Positions 649-54,510 of a stretch of 64,000 nucleotides of DNA are shown here, piece by piece. The translations under genes and the position numbers were made by a program. The first letter of the stretch is position 1. The number at the start of each line of letters is the position of its first letter. The DNA lies in the sequence record OP557969.1; one strand, 5' to 3'. Origin of the DNA: Escherichia phage ph0011. Below the pieces are notes generated by a model. That model was given only the letters and a program-made list of their open reading frames with translations. It was not told the origin of the DNA and did no database searches.

Positions 649-963
649 TTAGCCTATATTTCGAGTACCATTAAGATAGTTTTGTACTCTTTGATTTGCT
701 GGTATTCTAATTGTTACCCCACTTTTAAAATTATATATTGGGTCTTCTCCTAATATGTCTGGATTTAATAATGCAAAGATATAATATAATCGTTCATTTC
801 CGTACATTTCGTATGCCAAACGCCATGGTTGGTATTCATATTTCAATGGTATCTCATAAAAATCATCAGTATCAGCCGGAATGATATCACGTGGTAAATT
901 ATACCCAAGATACCATGTTTGTTTCACCTTAGCATAAGGTGAGTATTGACTATAGTTGGACAT
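649..963 (-). CDS. Hypothetical protein (104 aa)
   Basis: ORF in track; its start overlaps the stop of the upstream gene (963), suggesting translational coupling. No motif recognised. Confidence 0.3.
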   Translation of the reverse strand: MSNYSQYSPYAKVKQTWYLGYNLPRDIIPADTDDFYEIPLKYEYQPWRLAYEMYGNERLYYIFALLNPDILGEDPIYNFKSGVTIRIPANQRVQNYLNGTRNIG

Positions 964-3690: not shown

Positions 3691-5838
3691 ATGCTAAACA
3701 TTACACGTATATCTATGCGAAACTTCTTTTCATTCGGTAATGCACCACAAATTATTGAATTGAATAGTTCTGACATTTCATTAGTACTGGGTCAAAATAA
3801 TGATGCAGTTATTGAAGGTGGTGACAGTTCTGGACGACGAAATGGTGTAGGAAAAAGTGCAATTATTCAAGGATTAGTTTTTGGATTATTTGGAAAAAGT
3901 ATTGGGAATGATATTAAAATCCCTAACTTAGTTAATAAAACTAATGGGAAAAATTGCGAAGTTGTGGTAGAGTTTGAAAAAGACGGTGTGCAATATATTG
4001 TTGAGCGTGGGAGAAGTCCCACGTATTTCAATCTTGTTACTTTAGGTAAAGATGACAAAATTGAAGATGAATCAAGGGGTGAAAAGAAAGACACTCAAGA
4101 AGATTTGAATGAAATTCTTGGAATATCTCAATTATTATTTGAACATATTGTAGTACTGAATGCAAACGTTGAACCTTTCTTGGCGTTATCCACACAAAAA
4201 CAACGTGATATGATAGAAGAACTTCTAGGTATAACACAGTTAACAGAAAAAGCCGAAATATTAAAGGAGATGTACAAGGATACTAAACGCTTAGCAGAGC
4301 AAGAAAAGTTTAAAAATGAAACAGTTGCTGCAAGTAACGAACGTATTCAAAAAAGTATTGAGGTTCTTCAAGAACAGGCAAACCAATTTGAGATCGATAA
4401 AAGTAATAGAGTAGCGAAGTTAAATGAAGAGTTGAATATTTATAAAACGTTCGACTTCAATGAACTCTATAAAGCTGCTGAAGAGAAAGAGAAAGCTCTT
4501 ATTCATAACACAAAGCGTAATGAAATAGAACGCCGTGTACAAGATTTAGCTTTAAAATTTGATGCATATGACCGTGAGATTGAATCATCCAAACGTGCAC
4601 TAAAACTAAGCATTGATAAACTAAAAACTATTGATATTAGTGCTGAGTTGGAAAATCATAATGAACTAGAGATATGGAAACAGTTAGAAGACATTCTTAA
4701 AGAGAATAATAACCAAAAACGTTTCAAAGAGCAAAAGCTAAACTCACTAAAAGTTGCATTAAAAGGGTATGAATGTTCAATTAATGCTGAAATTGACAAA
4801 TTATCAACCGTTGAAAATAGTAAATGTCCACTTTGTATGTCAGAATTGGAACATAATGAACATACTTCTTCAATTAAAGATAAAATTCAAAGTACTATTG
4901 ACGATCTTCAAGCCAAAATTGACAGTTCTTCTTCTGAAATTGAGATTTTACTTAAAGAAATTGAGAGTATTGAGATTTTTGATATGCCACCTAAGCCTGT
5001 GACATATTATAATACACTTTCAGAAGCACAAATGCATGAACATAAGCTTCAAGAATTGATCAAAAAGAGTGAAGAAGAGCCAATAAACATCTATGCAAAT
5101 GAACTTATGTCATCATATGATGAACTTAACTCATATGAACTAATGGAAGTTCCAGATACATTAAACAAATATGAAGTTAAAGAGTTGGAAATGACCGTAA
5201 ATTCATTATCACAGCAATTAGATCGTGAATTGAAGACTACTAACACATTTATTAGTCAAATTAATACCCTGAAGACTGATTCTTTAGTACCAATCGATTA
5301 TAGTGACTATAATAATCTTGATAAAATGTCAAATCACCAAGATTTCTTGGTTAAATTACTTTTAAACAAGGATTCTTATGTCCGTAAACGTATTATTGAG
5401 CAAAATATCTCATATTTGAATACACGACTTCAGTACTATATCGATATGTGCGGTTCTGAGCATAATGTTGTGTTTTTGAATGATTTGAGTGTTGAAATTG
5501 AGAAGAGTGGGCAGTACTTTGACTATAAACAGCTTAGTCGTGGCGAGCGTACAAGGGTAAACATTGCTTTATCATGTGCTTTCCGTGATACATACGAGTC
5601 ATTATATCAAAGTATCAATCTAATAGCACTAGATGAAGCTTGTGATGTTGGTCTTGATTCAAGTGGTGTAGTTAAAGTGTGGTCAATCTTCAATGACATG
5701 GCTGCTATCAGAAATAAAAATGTATATATCATCTCTCATAGAGAAGAACTAGTTTCTAAGACTGAACATATACTTAAAGTAACTAAAGAAGATGGTTTTA
5801 GTACTATAAGTTACTGTACAATTGATGATATCTATTAA
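3691..5838 (+). CDS. 46: Recombination ATPase gp46 (Rad50/SbcC-like)
   Basis: N-terminal Walker A (RRNGVGKS), long coiled-coil middle, C-terminal signature/Walker B region (LSRGERTR, LIALDEA). Confidence 0.8.
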   Translation: MLNITRISMRNFFSFGNAPQIIELNSSDISLVLGQNNDAVIEGGDSSGRRNGVGKSAIIQGLVFGLFGKSIGNDIKIPNLVNKTNGKNCEVVVEFEKDGVQYIVERGRSPTYFNLVTLGKDDKIEDESRGEKKDTQEDLNEILGISQLLFEHIVVLNANVEPFLALSTQKQRDMIEELLGITQLTEKAEILKEMYKDTKRLAEQEKFKNETVAASNERIQKSIEVLQEQANQFEIDKSNRVAKLNEELNIYKTFDFNELYKAAEEKEKALIHNTKRNEIERRVQDLALKFDAYDREIESSKRALKLSIDKLKTIDISAELENHNELEIWKQLEDILKENNNQKRFKEQKLNSLKVALKGYECSINAEIDKLSTVENSKCPLCMSELEHNEHTSSIKDKIQSTIDDLQAKIDSSSSEIEILLKEIESIEIFDMPPKPVTYYNTLSEAQMHEHKLQELIKKSEEEPINIYANELMSSYDELNSYELMEVPDTLNKYEVKELEMTVNSLSQQLDRELKTTNTFISQINTLKTDSLVPIDYSDYNNLDKMSNHQDFLVKLLLNKDSYVRKRIIEQNISYLNTRLQYYIDMCGSEHNVVFLNDLSVEIEKSGQYFDYKQLSRGERTRVNIALSCAFRDTYESLYQSINLIALDEACDVGLDSSGVVKVWSIFNDMAAIRNKNVYIISHREELVSKTEHILKVTKEDGFSTISYCTIDDIY

Positions 5839-5845
5839 TAACAGA

Positions 5846-5872
5846 AAAGGGGGCTTATGCTCCCTTTTTTAT
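5846..5872 (+). terminator. Rho-independent terminator after gp46
   Basis: GC-rich hairpin (AGGGGGC-TTAT-GCTCCCT) followed by TTTTTT. Confidence 0.6.
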
Positions 5873-5947
5873 TATCATTATATCTATTGTTTCCATACAT
5901 CCTACATTGAACTAGATTTTGTAAGATATAGGATTGGTAATGTGTTT

Positions 5948-6442
5948 TTATTTTGTATCTCTTTTTACATCAACCATGTTTAATTTACCGTCCTTAATTA
6001 GCTTTCTAGCTTGTTTTACACGAGCAGTAGTGTTGCTACCAGGGACGACACCTAACCCTTCCAGAATTGCGTTTTGCTGCGTTGCTGGAAGCCTTTTAAA
6101 CTTATTCACATCTACTGTTAGTGCTGTGTGATGTATCACTTGCTCTTCTAGTGGGATGTTGTTGTTCTTTTCAAGATAATCTGCCAGATTTCTTAGAACT
6201 TCATGTAAAGGCATATCAGTTAAATGCTTTCCATATCGGTTCCATGCGTTGGAAACTTTACCTTCAAATGCGTTTATTTCATTCTGTAGAACTTCACGAC
6301 AGTGTTGGTTACCATAGTGGTAGTGATCCAGTACTGGTTTAGTTATTGGTTCCTTAATTATAGGATCAATTCCTTTTTGCTTCTTTAGTAATTCATTACG
6401 ATAGTTTGCAGCTTCTTTACTATCTTTTAATCTTTTCTTCAT
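5948..6442 (-). CDS. Free-standing HNH / endonuclease VII-like nuclease (putative homing endonuclease)
   Basis: Motif LDHYHYGNQHCREVLQNEINAFEG fits the DHxH...N...G pattern of EndoVII/HNH nucleases; lone minus-strand gene between conserved genes; late-promoter-like ATAAATAT upstream on the minus strand. Confidence 0.45.
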   Translation of the reverse strand: MKKRLKDSKEAANYRNELLKKQKGIDPIIKEPITKPVLDHYHYGNQHCREVLQNEINAFEGKVSNAWNRYGKHLTDMPLHEVLRNLADYLEKNNNIPLEEQVIHHTALTVDVNKFKRLPATQQNAILEGLGVVPGSNTTARVKQARKLIKDGKLNMVDVKRDTK

Positions 6443-6536
6443 AAATCCCCACCAAACTAATTTTTATAAAAATATTTATGAGTTACATTAGAGAACAATA
6501 ATTATGTGTTTTTTGATAAATAAATTTAAATTATTT

Positions 6537-6564
6537 GAGACAACTTTGAAGTTTGTGCTATAAT
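6537..6564 (+). promoter_or_regulatory. Sigma70-type promoter: GAGACA, 16-nt spacer, TGTGC-TATAAT (6559..6564); no annotated gene downstream
   Basis: Same conserved motif as the other five promoters; A/T-rich upstream region. Confidence 0.5.
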
Positions 6565-7015
6565 GTTTGATGTAGTAATGACAATCCTGTTGAATGCAGA
6601 AATGCATATAAATTAGAACCTGATCCTATCGAAAATGTAGATGGCAGATGAGCAGTTCAACAGTGCGATGAGCAGAAGAAACCCGTCAGAAGTGGGCATA
6701 GTTTGAACCCCTCACGGCAATGCGGCTCAATAAAGAACTCCGATAAGCACACAGAGAGTTCCTAGATAGACATATAAGGAATCACACCTTACCAGATTTG
6801 CTAAGGGAGTTTATTAATTGATTTTAATAAACAGCCTGAAGTTTGATTGTATAGACTTTCAGGTGAGTGCTGGGATGAAAAGACCAGTGACCGTTGCATA
6901 TGACCGTGATAGGGAGAAACAGAGCAACCCGCTTCCGTTTGTGATTGATCATTTTTACAATATAGATCCGTCCAAAATTCACGATACAATAAATGCTGAA
7001 ACCATCAGCGTCAAG

Positions 7016-7040
7016 AAGAGACTTAATTGTCTCTTTTTTA
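7016..7040 (+). terminator. Rho-independent terminator closing the orphan transcription unit
   Basis: Hairpin AGAGAC-TTAATT-GTCTCT followed by TTTTTT. Confidence 0.55.
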
Positions 7041-7255
7041 TTACTTTCATTCCCCTGTGGGGGGATGAAAATGTCCTCAACAAATCCCGTCAAGTTTTAA
7101 ATCTTTAAAAGTTCTTTCTAAATTAATTTAATGAAATGAATATGAGTTACGTAGTAACGAATATTCTTCAGGTAACGAATGAAATGAGTTAGCTGAATCC
7201 AATATATTAAAATTAATCTTTCATAATTCAATTCAAATAATTCTGTAGTTTAAAA

Positions 7256-7285
7256 ACAAAAAACCAGCAACAATGTGCTGGTAAT
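7256..7285 (-). terminator. Rho-independent terminator of the minus-strand operon 8339..7294
   Basis: On the minus strand: CCAGCA-CATTGT-TGCTGG followed by TTTTTT. Confidence 0.55.
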
Positions 7286-7293
7286 TATGTGAT

Positions 7294-7503
7294 TTAGTGC
7301 TTCTCGTTTTGTTTTTTAATTTTCTTATTAAAAGACTTAACTAATAAGTCTCTATCTATTAAAGGCATATTAAGAAGTGTTCCATAGTCAATATTATCCA
7401 TATAAACAGAACACTCCATTAGTGCTTGTTTGATTTCTGACTTATTCAGTTCTATCTCCCTTATGACTTCTTGTATTTCTTCAGGAGTTGACTGGAGAAG
7501 CAT
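7294..7503 (-). CDS. Hypothetical protein (69 aa)
   Basis: ORF in track; its start codon overlaps the stop of the upstream gene. Confidence 0.3.
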   Translation of the reverse strand: MLLQSTPEEIQEVIREIELNKSEIKQALMECSVYMDNIDYGTLLNMPLIDRDLLVKSFNKKIKKQNEKH

Positions 7504-8339
7504 TACTCGAAAAAATGACTAGGATCATATTTTAGTCCATCAATTTCCCATTGATGATTACAGTTACTACATTCAACTTCCATAGTATGGGAGACACCAA
7601 TCTCAAGTACTTCATCCATTTTTTCACGAATTAGTTTAAGAACTCCCTTCGATTGTTGACCGAGCCATTCATTAATAAATTCCTTTTCAACTACTTCATC
7701 ACCGTCTGGTGTTATAATTTTTGCAATAACTCCACCAATCATATCAAAATTAAGTTGAGCCATACTTTCAAAAACTTCTGAAAATATTTTTACTTTTTCA
7801 TCATTGTCAATATCAGCAGTTTCAAGAAACTTGGTTTTTTGTTGTTCGTTGAACATGCGTTCTGCAAAAGATGAATATTCTTTCCATGTAAGTGGTTTAA
7901 ATTCCAAACGTAGACCGTTATCCAAATCAACAGAAGGAATTTCACTAAATGATTTCGCAGTTTCAAGTAGATATGATAGATTACGCTCAAAGCGTCCCTC
8001 TTTTTCACATTCAGGACATACTACGTTAATGTCATATGTTTCTTCTTTCGAAGCAACTTTAATTGCAATAAGAAGCATTTCAACGTCATTTACATATAGT
8101 TCATCTGCATCAATTACATTCGGAACACAGTTCTCAATCACACGTGATACTGCATCACCATTTAGTAGCATATCTGGTGTATTCAGTGTCATTTCATCAC
8201 GTGCACTACGTGCACAAACTCCGCACTTGACACCTTTTGGTCCTAGTACTCCATCTTTATAAGGAATAACGCCGTTTGTAACCAACTTAGTACTGATCTC
8301 TTCAATTTTAGTGTACTTAGCAAGTGGATTCATAGCCAT
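7503..8339 (-). CDS. Zinc-ribbon protein (three CxxC pairs); possibly baseplate-hub related by position
   Basis: The track ORF extends to 8444, but the likely start is MAMNPL at 8339. CxxC motifs: CGVCARS, CPECEK, CSNCNH. Divergent from the tape-measure-like gene. Confidence 0.35.
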   Translation of the reverse strand: MAMNPLAKYTKIEEISTKLVTNGVIPYKDGVLGPKGVKCGVCARSARDEMTLNTPDMLLNGDAVSRVIENCVPNVIDADELYVNDVEMLLIAIKVASKEETYDINVVCPECEKEGRFERNLSYLLETAKSFSEIPSVDLDNGLRLEFKPLTWKEYSSFAERMFNEQQKTKFLETADIDNDEKVKIFSEVFESMAQLNFDMIGGVIAKIITPDGDEVVEKEFINEWLGQQSKGVLKLIREKMDEVLEIGVSHTMEVECSNCNHQWEIDGLKYDPSHFFE

Positions 8340-8462
8340 TTTGTTAAATCTCCATGTAATAAATGTGTTTGTAGTATTTATAATACTAAAAACAAACAAT
8401 TTTTTTATATTATATATAGTTTCATAAATATTTCTATAATACATCTATTAAAAGGGAATGTT

Positions 8463-10664
8463 ATGGCTGGAAATACAAGTGATTACCTACTACAACAGTT
8501 GGTTAATCAAACTAAAGATAACAATGATAGCTTGAGTGCTATACGTGAGTTATTGGCTGAAAATATAAAAAATGACAGAAAGAAATCCGGTTCTAAAAGT
8601 AGAAAACATAACGAAAGAACTTCATCTGGTTCTGGGAATCGTGGTTCTAAAGCTAATAATGTAGGTGGTGGTAAAGAATTTGGTAAAATATTCAAATCAT
8701 TATCATCTGAAGTATCAAATGTTGGAAAAACAATGATGAGTACATCTGCTAACGTCAGCAACGTTGTCAATTCACTGGGAATGAGTGCATCTTCATTTGC
8801 TGGTTCACTGGCAATGATTCCTGGGCCAGTTGGTGCAGCCGCTACTGCTTTTAAAATGGTCGCTGACGTTGGTATGGCAGTATATAATGTATTAAACGCA
8901 CAACTTGAAGTTTATAATAGAATAAACAGTGCTGGTGTTGCCCTATCTGAAGGTTATGGTTCCATATTAAAAGGTGCAGGTGCATCAATGATGAGTGTTG
9001 ATGCATTTGGTGAAGCATTACAAACACATAGTTCCGTTGTTGCACAATTGGATGGAGCATATGGTGATGGTGTTTCCACCTTTGGTAAATTATTGGGTAC
9101 TGTACAACAGGCACAAAATCAATTGGGTTTATATGGAGTTTCACAAAAAACACTAACTGATTTAACTGCACGTAATATTAAATTCCAAAAGCAATTTGGT
9201 GGAAGAGAAATGTTACGTAGTATGGATCAAGCAAAAAGTACTGAACAGTTTATCATGAGCATGACTAAGTTCAGTAAAAGTATGGGTGAGTCGGTTGATG
9301 CACTATTAAATAAAACACAAAACTTAGATAAATCATTAGATACACGTTCAATGCAAATAGCATTACAGAACTATTCTGGGCTATCAGGTAAAGCAGCAGT
9401 CGAAACGTCAAAAGCATTTAACGAAGCTGCTGCGAGTATGGGTGATGCTGGTGCAGATTTCCTACGTTTAATTTCACATCGTTTAACCATTGGTGGTGTA
9501 CCAGATGATTTATTGACTCCAGTACTTAATCAATTTGCTGACTTAGGTGAGAACTTGGTACGTAGTGGTGTTACTGATTCGCAAGAAATTCGCCGCCAGC
9601 AGATAGAATTTGTTAAAAAGAACAAAGAATTAATAAAGCAAGATTTATTACATCAGATTAATTTAGGAAACACTACTGCTGCAATCTTCAACCAACAACT
9701 ACTCGATATGGAAGCTGCGATAAACGATCCTAAGAGTCAACCAGCAGATAAATTAACACAATTCACTGATAGATTCAACAGATGGATTAGTAAAGAGTTT
9801 ACTGGACCATTTAATAAAATGTATGCAGATACACAAAATTCTATTGCGGATTACCTTACTGATATTGCTGATAGTACTGATGGTGCATGGGAATTCATCG
9901 GAAAGTTAGCACTTGATGGTTTTGGTTTGGTTCCTATTGCGAAAGATGCCGTTGTGTATTTGGATAGGATCGGTGGTGAGTTTGAGCAGTGGTTAGAAGG
10001 GTTAGGTACTGAAATTTTTGGTAGTGGATATAATAAAGTTTCAGAAGCATTCAATAGTTTTATGAATAACTTAATGGATTTACCTGGAAAACTATGGGAT
10101 TCTGTAAAAGGTTGGTTTGGTGGTTCGAAAGATAAACCAAAAGTTGATAATAATTCAGTCACCGATGGAGTAGAAAAAGTTAATAGCTACTTCGAAGATA
10201 AAATGAATTCATTTGGGGATTATATTTCCAATTCATTTGACCATTTTTTGAAATGGAATTCAAGTAGGAACTTTAAACAACCTAAACCACTTGATGGTTC
10301 AGTTGCAGAAAAACTTATTGGTACTGGTATTGATAGTAAACCCACAACAACTACTAGAATCGAAAAATCTGAACACGTTGCTCCGTATGTTACCATTACA
10401 CCAAAAACTTTTGATAAGTCAGCATGGGGACCGAATGAACCGCCAGTTCAAGCTCAACCGGACGATAATGAGGCTATGAAAGCGATGATAAATAATGGTA
10501 GTAGTATGGCAAATATTAATAATAATGCCACAATATCAGAAGATATGAAAGAGTTACTTAAAAAACTTGCTGATGTTAACGAGCAATCACTATCTGCTGT
10601 ACAACAGACAAATAACTATCTAAGAACTATCTCTGAAAACACTCAAGGTGAGAGAAACAGTTAA
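8463..10664 (+). CDS. Putative tail tape-measure / baseplate hub protein (gp29-like)
   Basis: 733 aa, Ala/Ser/Gly/Met-rich with low-complexity segments, typical of tape-measure proteins; call rests on composition and position only. Confidence 0.3.
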   Translation: MAGNTSDYLLQQLVNQTKDNNDSLSAIRELLAENIKNDRKKSGSKSRKHNERTSSGSGNRGSKANNVGGGKEFGKIFKSLSSEVSNVGKTMMSTSANVSNVVNSLGMSASSFAGSLAMIPGPVGAAATAFKMVADVGMAVYNVLNAQLEVYNRINSAGVALSEGYGSILKGAGASMMSVDAFGEALQTHSSVVAQLDGAYGDGVSTFGKLLGTVQQAQNQLGLYGVSQKTLTDLTARNIKFQKQFGGREMLRSMDQAKSTEQFIMSMTKFSKSMGESVDALLNKTQNLDKSLDTRSMQIALQNYSGLSGKAAVETSKAFNEAAASMGDAGADFLRLISHRLTIGGVPDDLLTPVLNQFADLGENLVRSGVTDSQEIRRQQIEFVKKNKELIKQDLLHQINLGNTTAAIFNQQLLDMEAAINDPKSQPADKLTQFTDRFNRWISKEFTGPFNKMYADTQNSIADYLTDIADSTDGAWEFIGKLALDGFGLVPIAKDAVVYLDRIGGEFEQWLEGLGTEIFGSGYNKVSEAFNSFMNNLMDLPGKLWDSVKGWFGGSKDKPKVDNNSVTDGVEKVNSYFEDKMNSFGDYISNSFDHFLKWNSSRNFKQPKPLDGSVAEKLIGTGIDSKPTTTTRIEKSEHVAPYVTITPKTFDKSAWGPNEPPVQAQPDDNEAMKAMINNGSSMANINNNATISEDMKELLKKLADVNEQSLSAVQQTNNYLRTISENTQGERNS

Positions 10665-25327: not shown

Positions 25328-25425
25328 TAAAAATGAGACAAGCACCATTTTTGAGATATAATGGTGCTTGTAGTAATCTGACATAAACACATTTTTGATT
25401 AACAAATAAAACGGAGAATTATATA

Positions 25426-45407: not shown

Positions 45408-46385
45408 ATGGCTCATCACGGCGTGTTTATGTACCCTTATAATCAGGAAGTATCATTGGGCAATTTTAATATGCCATATAGCAATGAAAAACTAACTATA
45501 TATAAAGGGGCAAATAATAATTTATCTTTTACTGTTCACAACGCTGATGGAAAGTATACTTTATTGAAAGAAAATGAATATCTTACATTTATGATTTTTG
45601 ATGTACGAAATAATACTAAACTATTTGATGTTGTTTTGGAAAAACAAGAACCAAGTTGGCTATCCGAAAGCGGTCAGGCCCGACAAACATTGGGAAATAA
45701 AAAGAAAGTATATTATGGATGTATTGTTCCAGCAGGTGTTATCCAAGATACCAGTCCTGGTTCCAAATATAGATGGAGTATCACTAAAGTAACAATGGAC
45801 GGTTCACTTGTAGAACCAACGCAATATCTATATACAGGTATGAACTATGAAGCATCAGCAGAGTTAATTATTTCAGACCAAGCTGTACCTGTATTTGTCC
45901 CTAGTACTGAAATATCTGTCAACCAAAATTCTGCATGGACGACTATTAAGCGTTTATATCATGAGCCTATTGGTAATGGTATGATTGGGGAATATGATAT
46001 TCTTGCATCAACACCCCTCCCTGCACAAATGCAGTTTGGATTGGTTGATGGATTGAGTAGTATAGCAATCTATTTTGATAAATTTATTGGTAGGATACAG
46101 CTTCAAGGGTGTTTGTGTAATGACGTACCAAATGATAATGAAAACTATAAATGGTTTATTATTAAATTAGATGGAAAGGATTATATTGAAAATGGGGTGG
46201 ATGTGGAAGGATTTCCAGAAGAACTCGATGGAATTGAAGCATTTAATTTTAAAGGAAATTATATGTGGTTAAGAATTGTAGTAGCTATTCATCCTAAAAC
46301 TGTTCCAGTACCATATGACTATGCTGCTGTGAGAAAAGTGTATGACCCTTTCTTAACTGTACCTAAAATTTTGATTCGCAGGTGA
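45408..46385 (+). CDS. Hypothetical protein (possibly structural)
   Basis: Likely start MAHHGVF at 45408 (track ORF starts at 45342); late-promoter-like CATAAATA upstream. Confidence 0.3.
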   Translation: MAHHGVFMYPYNQEVSLGNFNMPYSNEKLTIYKGANNNLSFTVHNADGKYTLLKENEYLTFMIFDVRNNTKLFDVVLEKQEPSWLSESGQARQTLGNKKKVYYGCIVPAGVIQDTSPGSKYRWSITKVTMDGSLVEPTQYLYTGMNYEASAELIISDQAVPVFVPSTEISVNQNSAWTTIKRLYHEPIGNGMIGEYDILASTPLPAQMQFGLVDGLSSIAIYFDKFIGRIQLQGCLCNDVPNDNENYKWFIIKLDGKDYIENGVDVEGFPEELDGIEAFNFKGNYMWLRIVVAIHPKTVPVPYDYAAVRKVYDPFLTVPKILIRR

Positions 46386-46411
46386 GACAAAACCCGAAGT
46401 TGTGCTATAAT
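46384..46411 (+). promoter_or_regulatory. Sigma70-type promoter: GAGACA, 16-nt spacer, TGTGC-TATAAT (46406..46411), upstream of the primase
   Basis: Conserved promoter family member. Confidence 0.55.
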
Positions 46412-51760: not shown

Positions 51761-53508
51761 TGTTAGATGAATTGAAGAAATTCTTAAAAAGCAAAAACAA
51801 AAAAACATGGGTTAAGTTGGTAAACAATAATGAATTATATTTTAAATATGTTCGTGAATTGTTCCCAACTAAACCAATGAATGAAGCATTGTATCTTATC
51901 ATGAATGACATGGTGCGTGCACCATCTGCCCCATGTGGTTCTGAATGTAAATTTATTAATGGTTCATATGATAAGTATTGTTCTAAGCCTACAAAACCAA
52001 ACAAAAATCGTGATAATGGGTTTTGTGTAGTATGTAATGAGCATTGGAAGCAAAACAAACTCAAAAATACTAAACAAAAATGTCTTGATGTTTATGGTGT
52101 CGAACATCATTGGCAAAGAAATGATGTAAAAGATAAAATAAAAAGTACTAATATGAAACGATATGGTGTTGAACACAATTCACACGTCGAACATGTACTT
52201 GAAAAAAGAAAGGAAACTTTCATTGAAAGATATGGTGTTGAATCACCGTTATCATCTGTTGAAATTCGTGATAAGATAAAAGCAACAAACATTGCAAAAT
52301 ATGGTGTTGAAAATTATGGAAGTACATGTGAATGTATCGAAAAACGAAATAAAACAATGCAAGAATTATATGGTTTTAGTAATGCACAACATGTAAAGAA
52401 GTTTTCAAATGAATCAAAGATTACTAAATCTAAAATAAGATATGATAAAATTTTATCTATTATTAACCCTTCATATAAAGAACTGTTTGAATATGATGAC
52501 TTGATAGATTCAACCAATGAAAGTAAACTTCCGTACTATTGTGAAATACACAAAGGACTGTTTTATAGTAATTATAAATATGGTATAGTTTGTGATGTTT
52601 GCAACCCACCTGTATATAGTTCAATACAAAATGAAATAAAAAACTTTGTATCAACATTGACTGAATGTAACATTATCATGAATGATAGAAGTAATGGGTA
52701 TGAGTATGATATATACATCCCTGAACTTCAGATAGCAATAGAAGTCAATGGAATGTATTGGCATAAAAGTGATATGGTTGATAAGTATTACCATAGAACA
52801 AAAACAATAAATTCGATAGAACGTGGGATTAGATTGATACATATCTTTGAAGATGAATGGTACTGTAAACAGGAAATTATTAAAAATAGATTAATGAATG
52901 TTTTTCAGTGTTCTAGAAAGATTTATGCCAGAAAATGTATTGTTAAAAAAATTAACACTAATATTTGTTATGATTTCTTAAACACTAATCATATACAAGG
53001 ATATACTAAATCTGGAATAAACTATGGTTTGTTTTATAATCAAGAATTGATTGCAGTAATGACGTTCGGAAAAAGTCGATATGATAAAAAATTTGAATAT
53101 GAACTAATACGATACTGCTCACGTGGAACTGTTGTTGGTGGTGCTAGTAAATTATTGTCTGCATTTGAGCGTGAATACAAACCATTGTCGTTGATGAGTT
53201 ACGCTGACTTGAATTGGGGGTCAGGACAGTTATACATATCTCTTAACTTTGAAAATTTAGGATACACAGAACCCAAATATTTTTATTATGATCCAAAAAC
53301 AAAACAGCGTTTTTCTAGACATAAATTTAGAAAACATAAATTAATTGAAATGGGCTACGACTCATCTAAAACTGAAGAAGATATATGCTTAGGTGAAATT
53401 GGATTGTATAAAATATACGATTCTGGTAATTGCAAATTTGCTAAATATTATTACAACACAAACATTACAGGAGATATTGAAAAATGTCCAAATCGTACAA
53501 AAAACTAA
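51760..53508 (+). CDS. Large free-standing nuclease-like protein, paralog 2 (putative homing endonuclease)
   Basis: Same architecture as 16890..18488: N-terminal Cys cluster, YGV repeats, YDIYIPELQIAIEVNGMYWH motif, conserved C-terminal YELIRYCS...VVGGASKLL. Confidence 0.45.
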   Translation: MLDELKKFLKSKNKKTWVKLVNNNELYFKYVRELFPTKPMNEALYLIMNDMVRAPSAPCGSECKFINGSYDKYCSKPTKPNKNRDNGFCVVCNEHWKQNKLKNTKQKCLDVYGVEHHWQRNDVKDKIKSTNMKRYGVEHNSHVEHVLEKRKETFIERYGVESPLSSVEIRDKIKATNIAKYGVENYGSTCECIEKRNKTMQELYGFSNAQHVKKFSNESKITKSKIRYDKILSIINPSYKELFEYDDLIDSTNESKLPYYCEIHKGLFYSNYKYGIVCDVCNPPVYSSIQNEIKNFVSTLTECNIIMNDRSNGYEYDIYIPELQIAIEVNGMYWHKSDMVDKYYHRTKTINSIERGIRLIHIFEDEWYCKQEIIKNRLMNVFQCSRKIYARKCIVKKINTNICYDFLNTNHIQGYTKSGINYGLFYNQELIAVMTFGKSRYDKKFEYELIRYCSRGTVVGGASKLLSAFEREYKPLSLMSYADLNWGSGQLYISLNFENLGYTEPKYFYYDPKTKQRFSRHKFRKHKLIEMGYDSSKTEEDICLGEIGLYKIYDSGNCKFAKYYYNTNITGDIEKCPNRTKN

Positions 53509-54135: not shown

Positions 54136-54471
54136 ATGAGGTTTAGTGATCTTACTGAAGAGGCTCCTGGAAAAGATATACGCAATATGATCACGACTAT
54201 TGCGTTGTCTTTAATGTCCACTGGTAGAGAAGATGTGAATGTTCAATCTTTAATTTCTGAAATTAAAAAGAGAACCAACATCGATGTTCCATACAATGTG
54301 ATGATGGATATTTTGAATTCCCTACCTTTTGTACAGGATGCTAATTCAGATATTGTAACTTTTGTTGGTAATTCAGCAGAAGGTTCAGGTGAATCTGAAC
54401 AAAATTCGGAAGAGCAAGTTGAAGATTGGGCAACAAAAGCTGCTGTGTCAGCAAATAAACAAAAAAACTGA
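54136..54471 (+). CDS. Hypothetical protein (111 aa)
   Basis: ORF in track. Confidence 0.3.
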   Translation: MRFSDLTEEAPGKDIRNMITTIALSLMSTGREDVNVQSLISEIKKRTNIDVPYNVMMDILNSLPFVQDANSDIVTFVGNSAEGSGESEQNSEEQVEDWATKAAVSANKQKN

Positions 54472-54510
54472 AACAAATAAAAATATAATGCTATAATTAG
54501 GAGTACACGG

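Follow-up and report, generated by a model that had tools for sequence, protein, structure and literature searches.

A large pseudoknotted RNA, apparently of an undescribed family, common to jumbo phages and chromosomal islands of enteric bacteria

Closest in kind to the RNA described here are GOLLD and ROOL, RNAs of several hundred nt with many helices and pseudoknots, which are borne by phages or prophages as free-standing genes and whose function is unknown (PMC12286853, PMC7567579). Gene-free gaps of large lytic phages also give rise to abundant ORF-less transcripts, among them ncRNA001-004 of PA5oct, which were defined by RNA-seq (PMC7318152), and a transcript of ~800 nt in ICP1 (PMC7567579). 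PA5oct is distantly related to the Rak2-like jumbo phages, the group to which all the phages carrying the present RNA belong. Large RNAs with several conserved pseudoknots are rare: to our knowledge, bacteria and phages have fewer than about twenty classes of them, most of which have proved to be ribozymes or parts of core machines. Other transcripts that invite comparison are RNA II of ColE1, a structured primer of ~550 nt, those of T4, which has several dispersed origins and in oriF and oriG uses middle-promoter R-loops, and the put RNA of HK022, which is about 70 nt long and acts only in cis.

The locus lies in a gene-free gap of 851 bp (6443-7293) within the window, the whole 64,000-nt stretch of DNA that was analysed. 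A sequence-only reading of the window had placed here, between an HNH gene and the hub operon, an orphan promoter-to-terminator unit lacking a convincing ORF. We find the intergenic region as it was described, gene-free up to the leftward baseplate-hub operon at 7294-8444 (Pfam match T4_baseplate). On the left the gap is bounded by a − strand gene at 5948-6442, whose orthologs in 121Q, G17 and UE-S1 are annotated as recombination endonuclease VII and not as an HNH gene; this identity comes from the ortholog annotation, a Pfam search of the gene itself having returned no match. The G+C content is 0.41-0.46 within 6575-7024 against 0.21-0.30 in the flanks, and the gap is 86-94% identical to its counterparts in jumbo phages of the 121Q/PBECO4/G17 type. 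The window is part of the genome of an Asteriusvirus-like jumbo phage of that type. No tRNA or tmRNA gene was found by ARAGORN in the whole window, in line with the earlier failure to see a tRNA-like T-arm.

The RNA family encoded here, large, pseudoknotted and common to jumbo phages and islands of enteric bacteria, appears to be undescribed. The covariance-model scan that had been suggested for this region was run with Rfam 15: there was no match at E <= 10 inside 6570-7010 of the window copy, nor, at permissive thresholds, any match on the RNA at 13 other phage loci and 6 bacterial loci, which excludes GOLLD, ROOL, HEARO, group I and II introns, RNase P, tmRNA, 6S and the small ribozymes as families. 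Full-text searches, which covered genome papers on CBB, Sharanji, UE-S1 and 121Q-like phages and surveys of phage RNAs, turned up no account of it; it may be present, unnamed, among 10,006 candidate motifs catalogued from contigs of IMG/VR, in which these phages are represented (PMC10690425). With GOLLD and ROOL the jumbo-phage RNA shares its size, its helices and pseudoknots, its location in phages and the free-standing gene. It differs from them in matching no covariance model, in having no adjacent tRNA (there is none in the window), in its hosts, which are Enterobacterales and their jumbo myoviruses rather than Firmicutes or rumen bacteria, and in its 3-5 paralogs per genome, each with a distinctive promoter. 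The PA5oct and ICP1 transcripts are likewise ORF-less units in gene-free gaps of large lytic phages; for these there are expression data and no demonstrated conserved structure, while for the jumbo-phage RNA the reverse holds. PA5oct ncRNA001 and ncRNA002 were tried as homologs and rejected, since they show no sequence similarity (nhmmer E > 1).

To collect copies, a 481-nt query from within the unit was searched against phages, and it matched 72 records, all of Rak2-like jumbo phages infecting Escherichia, Salmonella, Klebsiella, Erwinia, Yersinia, Serratia, Cronobacter, Pectobacterium and 'Xanthomonas'; among the phage isolates of the collection, temperate ones included, nothing matched outside this group. 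Each record has the sequence in 3-5 places, nearly all of them unannotated; in the UE-S1 record part of the region is labelled 'repeat_region'. The whole genome of 121Q contains four copies on the same strand, at 90.3, 192.8, 247.5 and 326.6 kb, every one of them in a separate gene-free gap of 600-840 bp behind its own TGnTATAAT; the one at 326.6 kb is orthologous to the window copy. By pattern scans of IMG/VR we located copies in 121Q, fHe-Yen9-04, CBB, GAP32, Serratia phage BF and uncultivated contigs of 350-380 kb, and nhmmer yielded 36 distinct full-length copies, among which length-changing indels are frequent. A copy stands beside endonuclease VII in 121Q, GAP32, CBB, BF and Yen9-04, and RaK2 has a diverged full-length copy after a sigma-factor gene, syntenic with one of the 121Q copies. 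As one of 3-5 paralogs per genome, in a family that is found in bacterial chromosomal islands too, the unit is not an orphan. That paralogs keep syntenic positions from genus to genus would also agree with a cis function tied to position, for instance that of an origin.

The family extends to bacterial chromosomes. We scanned bacterial assemblies, one genome per species, and metagenomes with a degenerate pattern derived from the PK3/P10 core (see below), and obtained 8 true bacterial homologs and 64 metagenome stretches, almost all of them confirmed by nhmmer at 100-440 bits. Chromosomal copies are found in Serratia fonticola (complete chromosome), Serratia sp., Silvania hatchlandensis, Enterobacter chinensis, Buttiauxella and Enterobacteriaceae isolates or MAGs; a search of a plasmid collection returned no match to the family. 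Among complete E. coli genomes, 2 of 5,426 have a copy, and that of E. coli LR-29-1 is full-length (400 bits) and sits in an unannotated gap of 1.4 kb on an island inserted beside ffs. Such islands carry the RNA singly. Their typical order, along the RNA strand, is integrase, RNA, a convergent CI-like repressor (HTH and S24 peptidase), a Ner-like protein (recognized by eye only), a predicted membrane protein and an LprI-like protein; the integrase is a large serine recombinase or, elsewhere, a protein of ~420 aa that is tyrosine-integrase-like by eye only. No gene neighbouring the RNA is conserved in both phages and islands. Jumbo phages have no homologs of the proteins encoded on either side of the E. 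coli island copy, so the cassette of promoter and RNA has moved alone.

In order to model the fold, we searched column pairs for compensatory changes, long-range ones included, and obtained 96 pairs in 17 helices with three pseudoknots. The model was evaluated on two alignments, A1, a plain MAFFT alignment of 34 copies that was not fitted to the structure, and A2, which contains 8 chromosomal, 11 metagenomic and 5 phage copies. The features of the window copy are:

6536-6564, + strand: promoter, with −35-like TGAGAC at 6536-6541, a 17-nt spacer and the extended −10 TGCTATAAT at 6556-6564
6594-6607, + strand: candidate variable 5' leader hairpin AUGCA-GAAA-UGCAU; other copies have a hairpin of different sequence here
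6620-6802, + strand: 5' domain, made of P1-P6, PK1 and T1, with pairs counted on A1 and A2
6620-6630/6640-6647, + strand: P1, 5' domain
6652-54/6664-66, + strand: P2, 5' domain
6669-73/6725-29, + strand: P3, 5' domain
6683-86/6714-17, + strand: P4, 5' domain
6720-22/6771-73, + strand: T1, a 3-bp tertiary pairing of the 5' domain
6735-40/6756-61, + strand: P5, 5' domain
6746-49/6799-6802, + strand: PK1, a loop-to-junction pseudoknot of the 5' domain
6775-79/6787-91, + strand: P6, 5' domain
6802-6809, + strand: single-stranded UAAGGGAG, its core AAGGGA invariant in all copies of A1 and A2
6809-6832, + strand: peripheral hairpin at insertion point 1, its closing stem 6809-11/6830-32 covarying in 3 of 3 pairs
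6818-7108, + strand: chance ORF, 96 aa from TTG 6818 or 77 aa from ATG 6875, not a gene
6833-6990, + strand: 3' domain, made of P7-P11, PK2 and PK3
6833-45/6852-64, + strand: P7, 3' domain
6846-51/6985-90, + strand: PK2, the P7 loop paired with 6985-6990
6868-73/6884-89, + strand: P8, 3' domain
6893-97/6924-28, + strand: PK3, which crosses P9 and P10
6905-09/6979-83, + strand: P9
6912-16/6932-36, + strand: P10
6939-41/6973-75, + strand: P11, which closes an optional module that is present in the window copy
7004-7015, + strand: DR1, direct repeat AUCAGCGUCAAG, changing in step with DR2 across lineages
7013-7040, + strand: hairpin and U-run, stem 7017-22/7029-34; the terminator scan gives 10 pairs at 7013-7038
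7046-7069, + strand: P12, a G+C-rich hairpin UUCAUUCCCC-UGUG-GGGGGAUGAA found in all copies
7084-7094, + strand: DR2, direct repeat AUCCCGUCAAG, sharing lineage-specific substitutions with DR1
7138-7166, + strand: hairpin A, first of a two-hairpin block that follows phage and island copies
7167-7197, + strand: hairpin B, second of the block

On A1, 93.7% of the cells in paired columns were paired, against 76.8 +/- 0.4% in shuffled alignments and 38-46% when the partners were slid by 1-3 columns. Changes on both sides were seen in 65 pairs (46.7 shuffled, 17-32 slid) and in 501 cells (141 shuffled, 50-83 slid), and none of 500 shuffles reached any of the observed values of pairing or covariation. 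On A2 the paired cells amounted to 88.3%, against 75.5% shuffled and about 42% slid. The helices of the 5' domain are 85-100% paired on A1, with compensatory changes in most of them, and were confirmed on A2 with the exceptions of PK1 (60%) and P6 (75%), which are lowered where MAFFT misaligns. PK2 is 99.5% paired with 5 of its 6 pairs covarying on A1, and 100% paired with 6 of 6 covarying on A2, island copies included; PK3, P9 and P10 are each 100% paired on A1. Many copies carry at insertion point 1 a module of ~30 nt, AUUUUGUACAAUAUAGAUCCGUCCAAAAUU, and the invariant single-stranded motifs of the RNA include UAAGGGAG, GACCGU and ACCCGC. With more than 400 nt and many helices and pseudoknots supported by covariation, on A1 and again on A2, the molecule has the build of a large ornate RNA of the GOLLD/ROOL kind. 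In the paired columns G·U cells (236) far outnumber A·C cells (55), and the + strand is therefore the RNA; the direction of the promoter agrees with this assignment. Folding energy was rejected as an indicator of strand, its z-scores being equally low on both (-4.6 and -5.5). Two resemblances to known ribozymes were also discarded. The segment AGAUGAG...CGA around P2, hammerhead-like by eye, has no CUGANGA/GAAA core and no Rfam match. A group I intron does not agree with a free-standing RNA that has its own promoter and lies between complete genes encoded on the opposite strand. Intron_gpI gives no match, and the order along the strand (PK3-5', P9-5', P10-5', PK3-3', P10-3', P11, P9-3') differs from that of group I introns, which have a P3/P7 pseudoknot with P8 between P3' and P7', and a P4-P6 domain.

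Since covariation is accompanied by the lack of any conserved ORF, the window locus is almost certainly a gene for a conserved structured RNA and not for a protein, and the sequence-only reading of a promoter-driven non-coding RNA is thereby supported. The short ORFs that it listed do exist, one of 21 codons at 6641-6706 and one of 77 codons ending at 7108, and the latter, which from TTG 6818 would have 96 codons, could be imagined as a small-protein gene translated behind AAGGGAG (6803-6809, 8 nt ahead of the TTG) and ending just past the conserved region. We give this almost no credence, because no other copy has the ORF intact: in the 121Q ortholog, which is ~90% identical, the longest ORF has 36 aa, one CBB copy has no ORF of 30 aa or more, and among 36 copies the ORFs of at least 30 aa differ in frame, length and position. 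Indels are frequent, substitutions track base-pairing and not codons, and a Pfam search of 6818-7108 found no match. The invariant AAGGGA resembles a Shine-Dalgarno sequence and is followed by no conserved ORF. Just as little can be said for a functionless, decaying repeat or the remnant of a gene or selfish element, which would account for repeated sequence in gene-free gaps and for the 'repeat_region' label of UE-S1; about 90 pairs are kept by compensatory changes across phage genera and bacterial islands, many columns are invariant and the promoter is conserved. The decayed protein gene without conserved structure, contemplated earlier, is contradicted by these changes, which preserve the fold. 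A selfish-element remnant beside a homing nuclease finds no support, the neighbour being an endonuclease VII homolog and the other copies having unrelated neighbours.

The promoter was correctly assigned to a conserved family, with its −10 at 6559-6564. Read against the consensus, 6535-6564 is TTGAGA-18-TATAAT, 11 of 12 positions plus the TG extension, and it is the best promoter-like site in 5000-9000, an interval that shows no excess of sigma-70-like sites in general (17 against 19.3 expected). Of the family motif TG[AG][AG]A[CT]-N16-18-TATAAT the window has 7 instances, one of them at 6536-6564, where shuffles have 1.2 +/- 1.1. The same architecture lies 5' of every phage copy and of the island copies; in the latter the promoter reads AATGAAAC/T-N17-TGTCCTATACT and is preceded by a palindrome with 12-bp arms. 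The class to which the promoter belongs, with −35 TGAAACG and a TATA −10, has been described ahead of DNA-synthesis genes in the CBB genome (PMC5259590). From the position of the −10 we infer that transcription would start near 6571.

At the other end, the proposed terminator at 7016-7040 stands as a hairpin with a U-run (7013-7038) but not as the 3' end of the conserved unit. The scan for hairpins followed by U-runs returned 5 terminator-like sites against 1.6 expected. The hairpin at 7013-7040 occurs in 20 of 34 copies, with covarying stems of differing sequence, and the island copies have a hairpin at this place without the U-run; it lies inside the conserved unit and may serve some of the copies as a partial or conditional terminator. 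In every copy conservation runs past 7040, to about 7197 in the window, and takes in P12 (88.5% paired on A1, 83.8% on A2), DR2 and hairpins A and B, with covarying elements among them. DR1 and DR2, roughly 12 nt each, vary together: copies have AUC/AUC or ACC/ACC, CGUCAA/CGUCAA or CGUCAG/CGUCAG, the RaK2 type has CUUCAAG in both and one Serratia copy CGACAA in both. A complementary partner for the repeats was sought within the RNA and no convincing one was found; the candidate 6842-6847, for which the RaK2 change is compensatory, was rejected, being used in P7 and PK2 and leaving a change in Serratia L101 uncompensated. Hairpins A and B sit behind a short variable spacer after DR2, and the island copies keep the same downstream hairpins as the phage copies. 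The stems of hairpin B covary (UUUG..CAAA, UUAG..CUAA, CUGG-CUCGCUUG..AGCGGG-CAG), and a TTGACA in this block that looks like a −35 box belongs to that hairpin. Judged from this conservation, A and B are probably the 3' part of the same RNA, whose length may be about 470 nt (end at 7040) or about 630 nt (end at about 7197).

What the RNA does can be approached from the way in which it is distributed. The cassette is kept in 3-5 diverged copies per phage and singly in islands, next to unrelated neighbours, and from this we infer a function in trans; the reading we favour, with moderate confidence, is a folded RNA that is free-standing and trans-acting. Our best guess, by analogy with other large structured RNAs, is that mobile elements would use it as a scaffold or decoy for binding proteins, or as a ribozyme. 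The host polymerase, perhaps together with a phage factor, would begin transcription near the predicted site from TGRRAC-N17-TGnTATAAT, and the + strand transcript would fold into two domains with pseudoknots (6620-6802 and 6833-6990), after which comes a tail containing the two co-evolving 12-nt repeats and several hairpins. Where mobile elements and the cell are in conflict, the folded RNA might then capture a protein of the host or the phage by way of its invariant single-stranded motifs, or be catalytic, and DR1 and DR2 would be natural recognition or processing sites. A bolder and rather doubtful version takes it for a new class of large catalytic or self-assembling RNA, exchanged as a cassette between jumbo phages and enteric islands, in which the island copies, with the TGAAAC-type promoter of the phage itself, would be switched on by jumbo-phage infection and would either compete with the phage RNAs, in defence, or exploit them, in the manner of a satellite, the repeats again marking processing or recognition sites.

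The main rival to a trans-acting RNA is a replication origin module, in which the transcript of a middle-type promoter would form a persistent RNA-DNA hybrid that primes the leading strand, so that the copies would be multiple origins and satellite-like islands would use the phage replication machinery. Like the primer transcripts of T4 oriF/oriG and ColE1 RNA II, the unit is promoter-driven, non-coding, ~0.5 kb long and set in a gene-free stretch, and there are 3-5 dispersed, syntenically conserved copies per ~350-kb genome. The P12 hairpin with its G-run and C-run, the A+T-rich flanks, repeated ACGAA-type motifs with hairpins downstream, the islands of host chromosomes with the same cassette and promoter type, and the TGAAACG promoter class ahead of CBB DNA-synthesis genes (PMC5259590) would also suit an origin. 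However, about 100 covarying pairs, three pseudoknots and many G·U pairs make its structure far more constrained than those of the T4 and ColE1 primers and exceed what known primer transcripts need, and no replication initiator gene adjoins the island copies; we regard an origin as unlikely. The T4 origins are not homologous to one another, and we know of no such conserved RNA that they have in common. Still somewhat less probable is a cis-acting leader, in which the nascent RNA would modify the polymerase or control the internal terminator, as in HK022 put or a riboswitch-like attenuator, and so govern the expression of what follows. With HK022 put the unit has in common a structured RNA close to the promoter and a terminator-like hairpin after it. 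About half of the phage copies have a hairpin and U-run inside the conserved unit, in one class of paralogs a terminator-like hairpin comes immediately behind the promoter, and the downstream genes are co-directional at 3 of the 4 copies of 121Q. Against a leader function argues that the nearest downstream gene is convergent to the RNA gene in the window copy, its orthologs and the island copies; moreover, the U-run is absent from the islands, the cassette was transferred without downstream genes, and with 500-630 nt and three pseudoknots the RNA is far above known antitermination RNAs, 7-9 times larger than put, and often faces convergent genes. We consider very improbable an RNA anti-CRISPR, in which P12 (UUCCCC..GGGGGAUGAAA) would mimic the type I-E repeat and trap Cas6e/Cascade. 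The E. coli type I-E repeat is GUUCCCCGCGCCAGCGGGGAUAAACCG, which P12 resembles by eye, and the hosts commonly carry I-E systems. A weak Rfam match to CRISPR-DR37 exists at 7037-7072, but with 21.3 bits (E = 0.92) it falls short of the gathering score, which is 40, and it is on the opposite strand; the P12 stem is 1-2 bp shorter than that of the repeat and its loop is different, a pseudoknotted core of ~400 nt would be left unexplained, and the RNA is also found in bacterial chromosomes.

The function of the family would be directly testable by genetics, pull-downs and cryo-EM, since it is present in the E. coli phages 121Q, PBECO4, G17 and phAPEC6, which can be grown in the laboratory, and in chromosomes of E. 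coli, Serratia and Enterobacter. For genome annotation, the results mean that the 'empty' gaps of 600-850 bp in all Rak2-like genomes are genes, and that the many short 'hypothetical proteins' with which several records fill these gaps are probably spurious.

The RNA gene contains, in window coordinates, the following repeated or variable elements:

7004-7015 and 7084-7094: two direct repeats of ~12 nt, flanking the 'terminator' hairpin and the conserved hairpin P12
6939-6975: ~30-nt module AUUUUGUACAAUAUAGAUCCGUCCAAAAUU, in which a stem carries a conserved loop of 17 nt

Lineage-specific substitutions are identical in both ~12-nt repeats, in phage copies and in chromosomal island copies alike, a pattern of concerted evolution; a search within the RNA found no complementary partner for them. 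The ~30-nt module has two insertion points (6939-6975 and, in other copies, the equivalent of 6812-6830), of which one or both are occupied depending on the RNA copy, and in this it resembles a movable peripheral element.

The promoter of the RNA gene belongs to a family, TG[AG][AG]A[CT]-N16-18-TATAAT, with 7 matches in the window against 1.2 expected. The six others are:

898-926, minus strand: promoter-family match
1739-1767, 25334-25362, 46383-46411, 53013-53040 and 54469-54497, plus strand: promoter-family matches

The strings 'TGRGACAA' and 'TGCTATAAT' are common to the RNA-gene promoter and several of these sites. In the copy at 192.8 kb of phage 121Q (locus L007, 42793-42870), a strong hairpin with a U-run directly follows the promoter and precedes the conserved core. 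This hairpin marks one class of paralogs (also L060, L062, L067, L070, L078 and L081), in which it looks like a promoter-proximal attenuator. Downstream of the RNA gene, the hub operon ends at a hairpin of its own:

7263-7282: two-way terminator hairpin ACCAGCAACAATGTGCTGGT, with a U-run on the minus strand only

Weak matches to Rfam 'Arrc14' and 'CyaR' at 7249-7334 (minus strand) were rejected, as they reflect nothing but this hairpin.

In several deposited genomes, including LT960551 (g347, g348), OR699181-OR699188, PP886230 and PQ330092 among others, the RNA is covered by annotations of 2-5 very small 'hypothetical proteins', for which ribosome-binding sites are also given; they are probably false predictions. 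Phage 121Q also has a 2-kb stretch without any annotated gene (135,194-137,161; L006 35194-37161), which holds no copy of the RNA family.

Six island loci (L099, L104, L095, L100, L111 and L165) carry, ~60 nt upstream of the RNA promoter, a perfect palindrome with 12-bp arms, CCCTATAAATATCGGTAGATATTTATAGGG, which lies between the integrase gene and that promoter and could be an operator for the adjoining CI/Ner-like regulators. The E. coli RNA copy resides in the LR-29-1 island:

L169 14996-16727: island beside ffs

The same island, possibly a defence island, also encodes a small serine recombinase and a truncated tyrosine integrase and contains an IS3, together with a trio of genes (DUF4326 / DUF488 / dual-OB-domain). 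Finally, a full-length island-type copy is present in a 2.8-kb contig labelled Clostridium sp. UBA10317 (DPOH01000171.1, L103); because this copy is almost identical to the enterobacterial ones, the contig was probably mis-binned.
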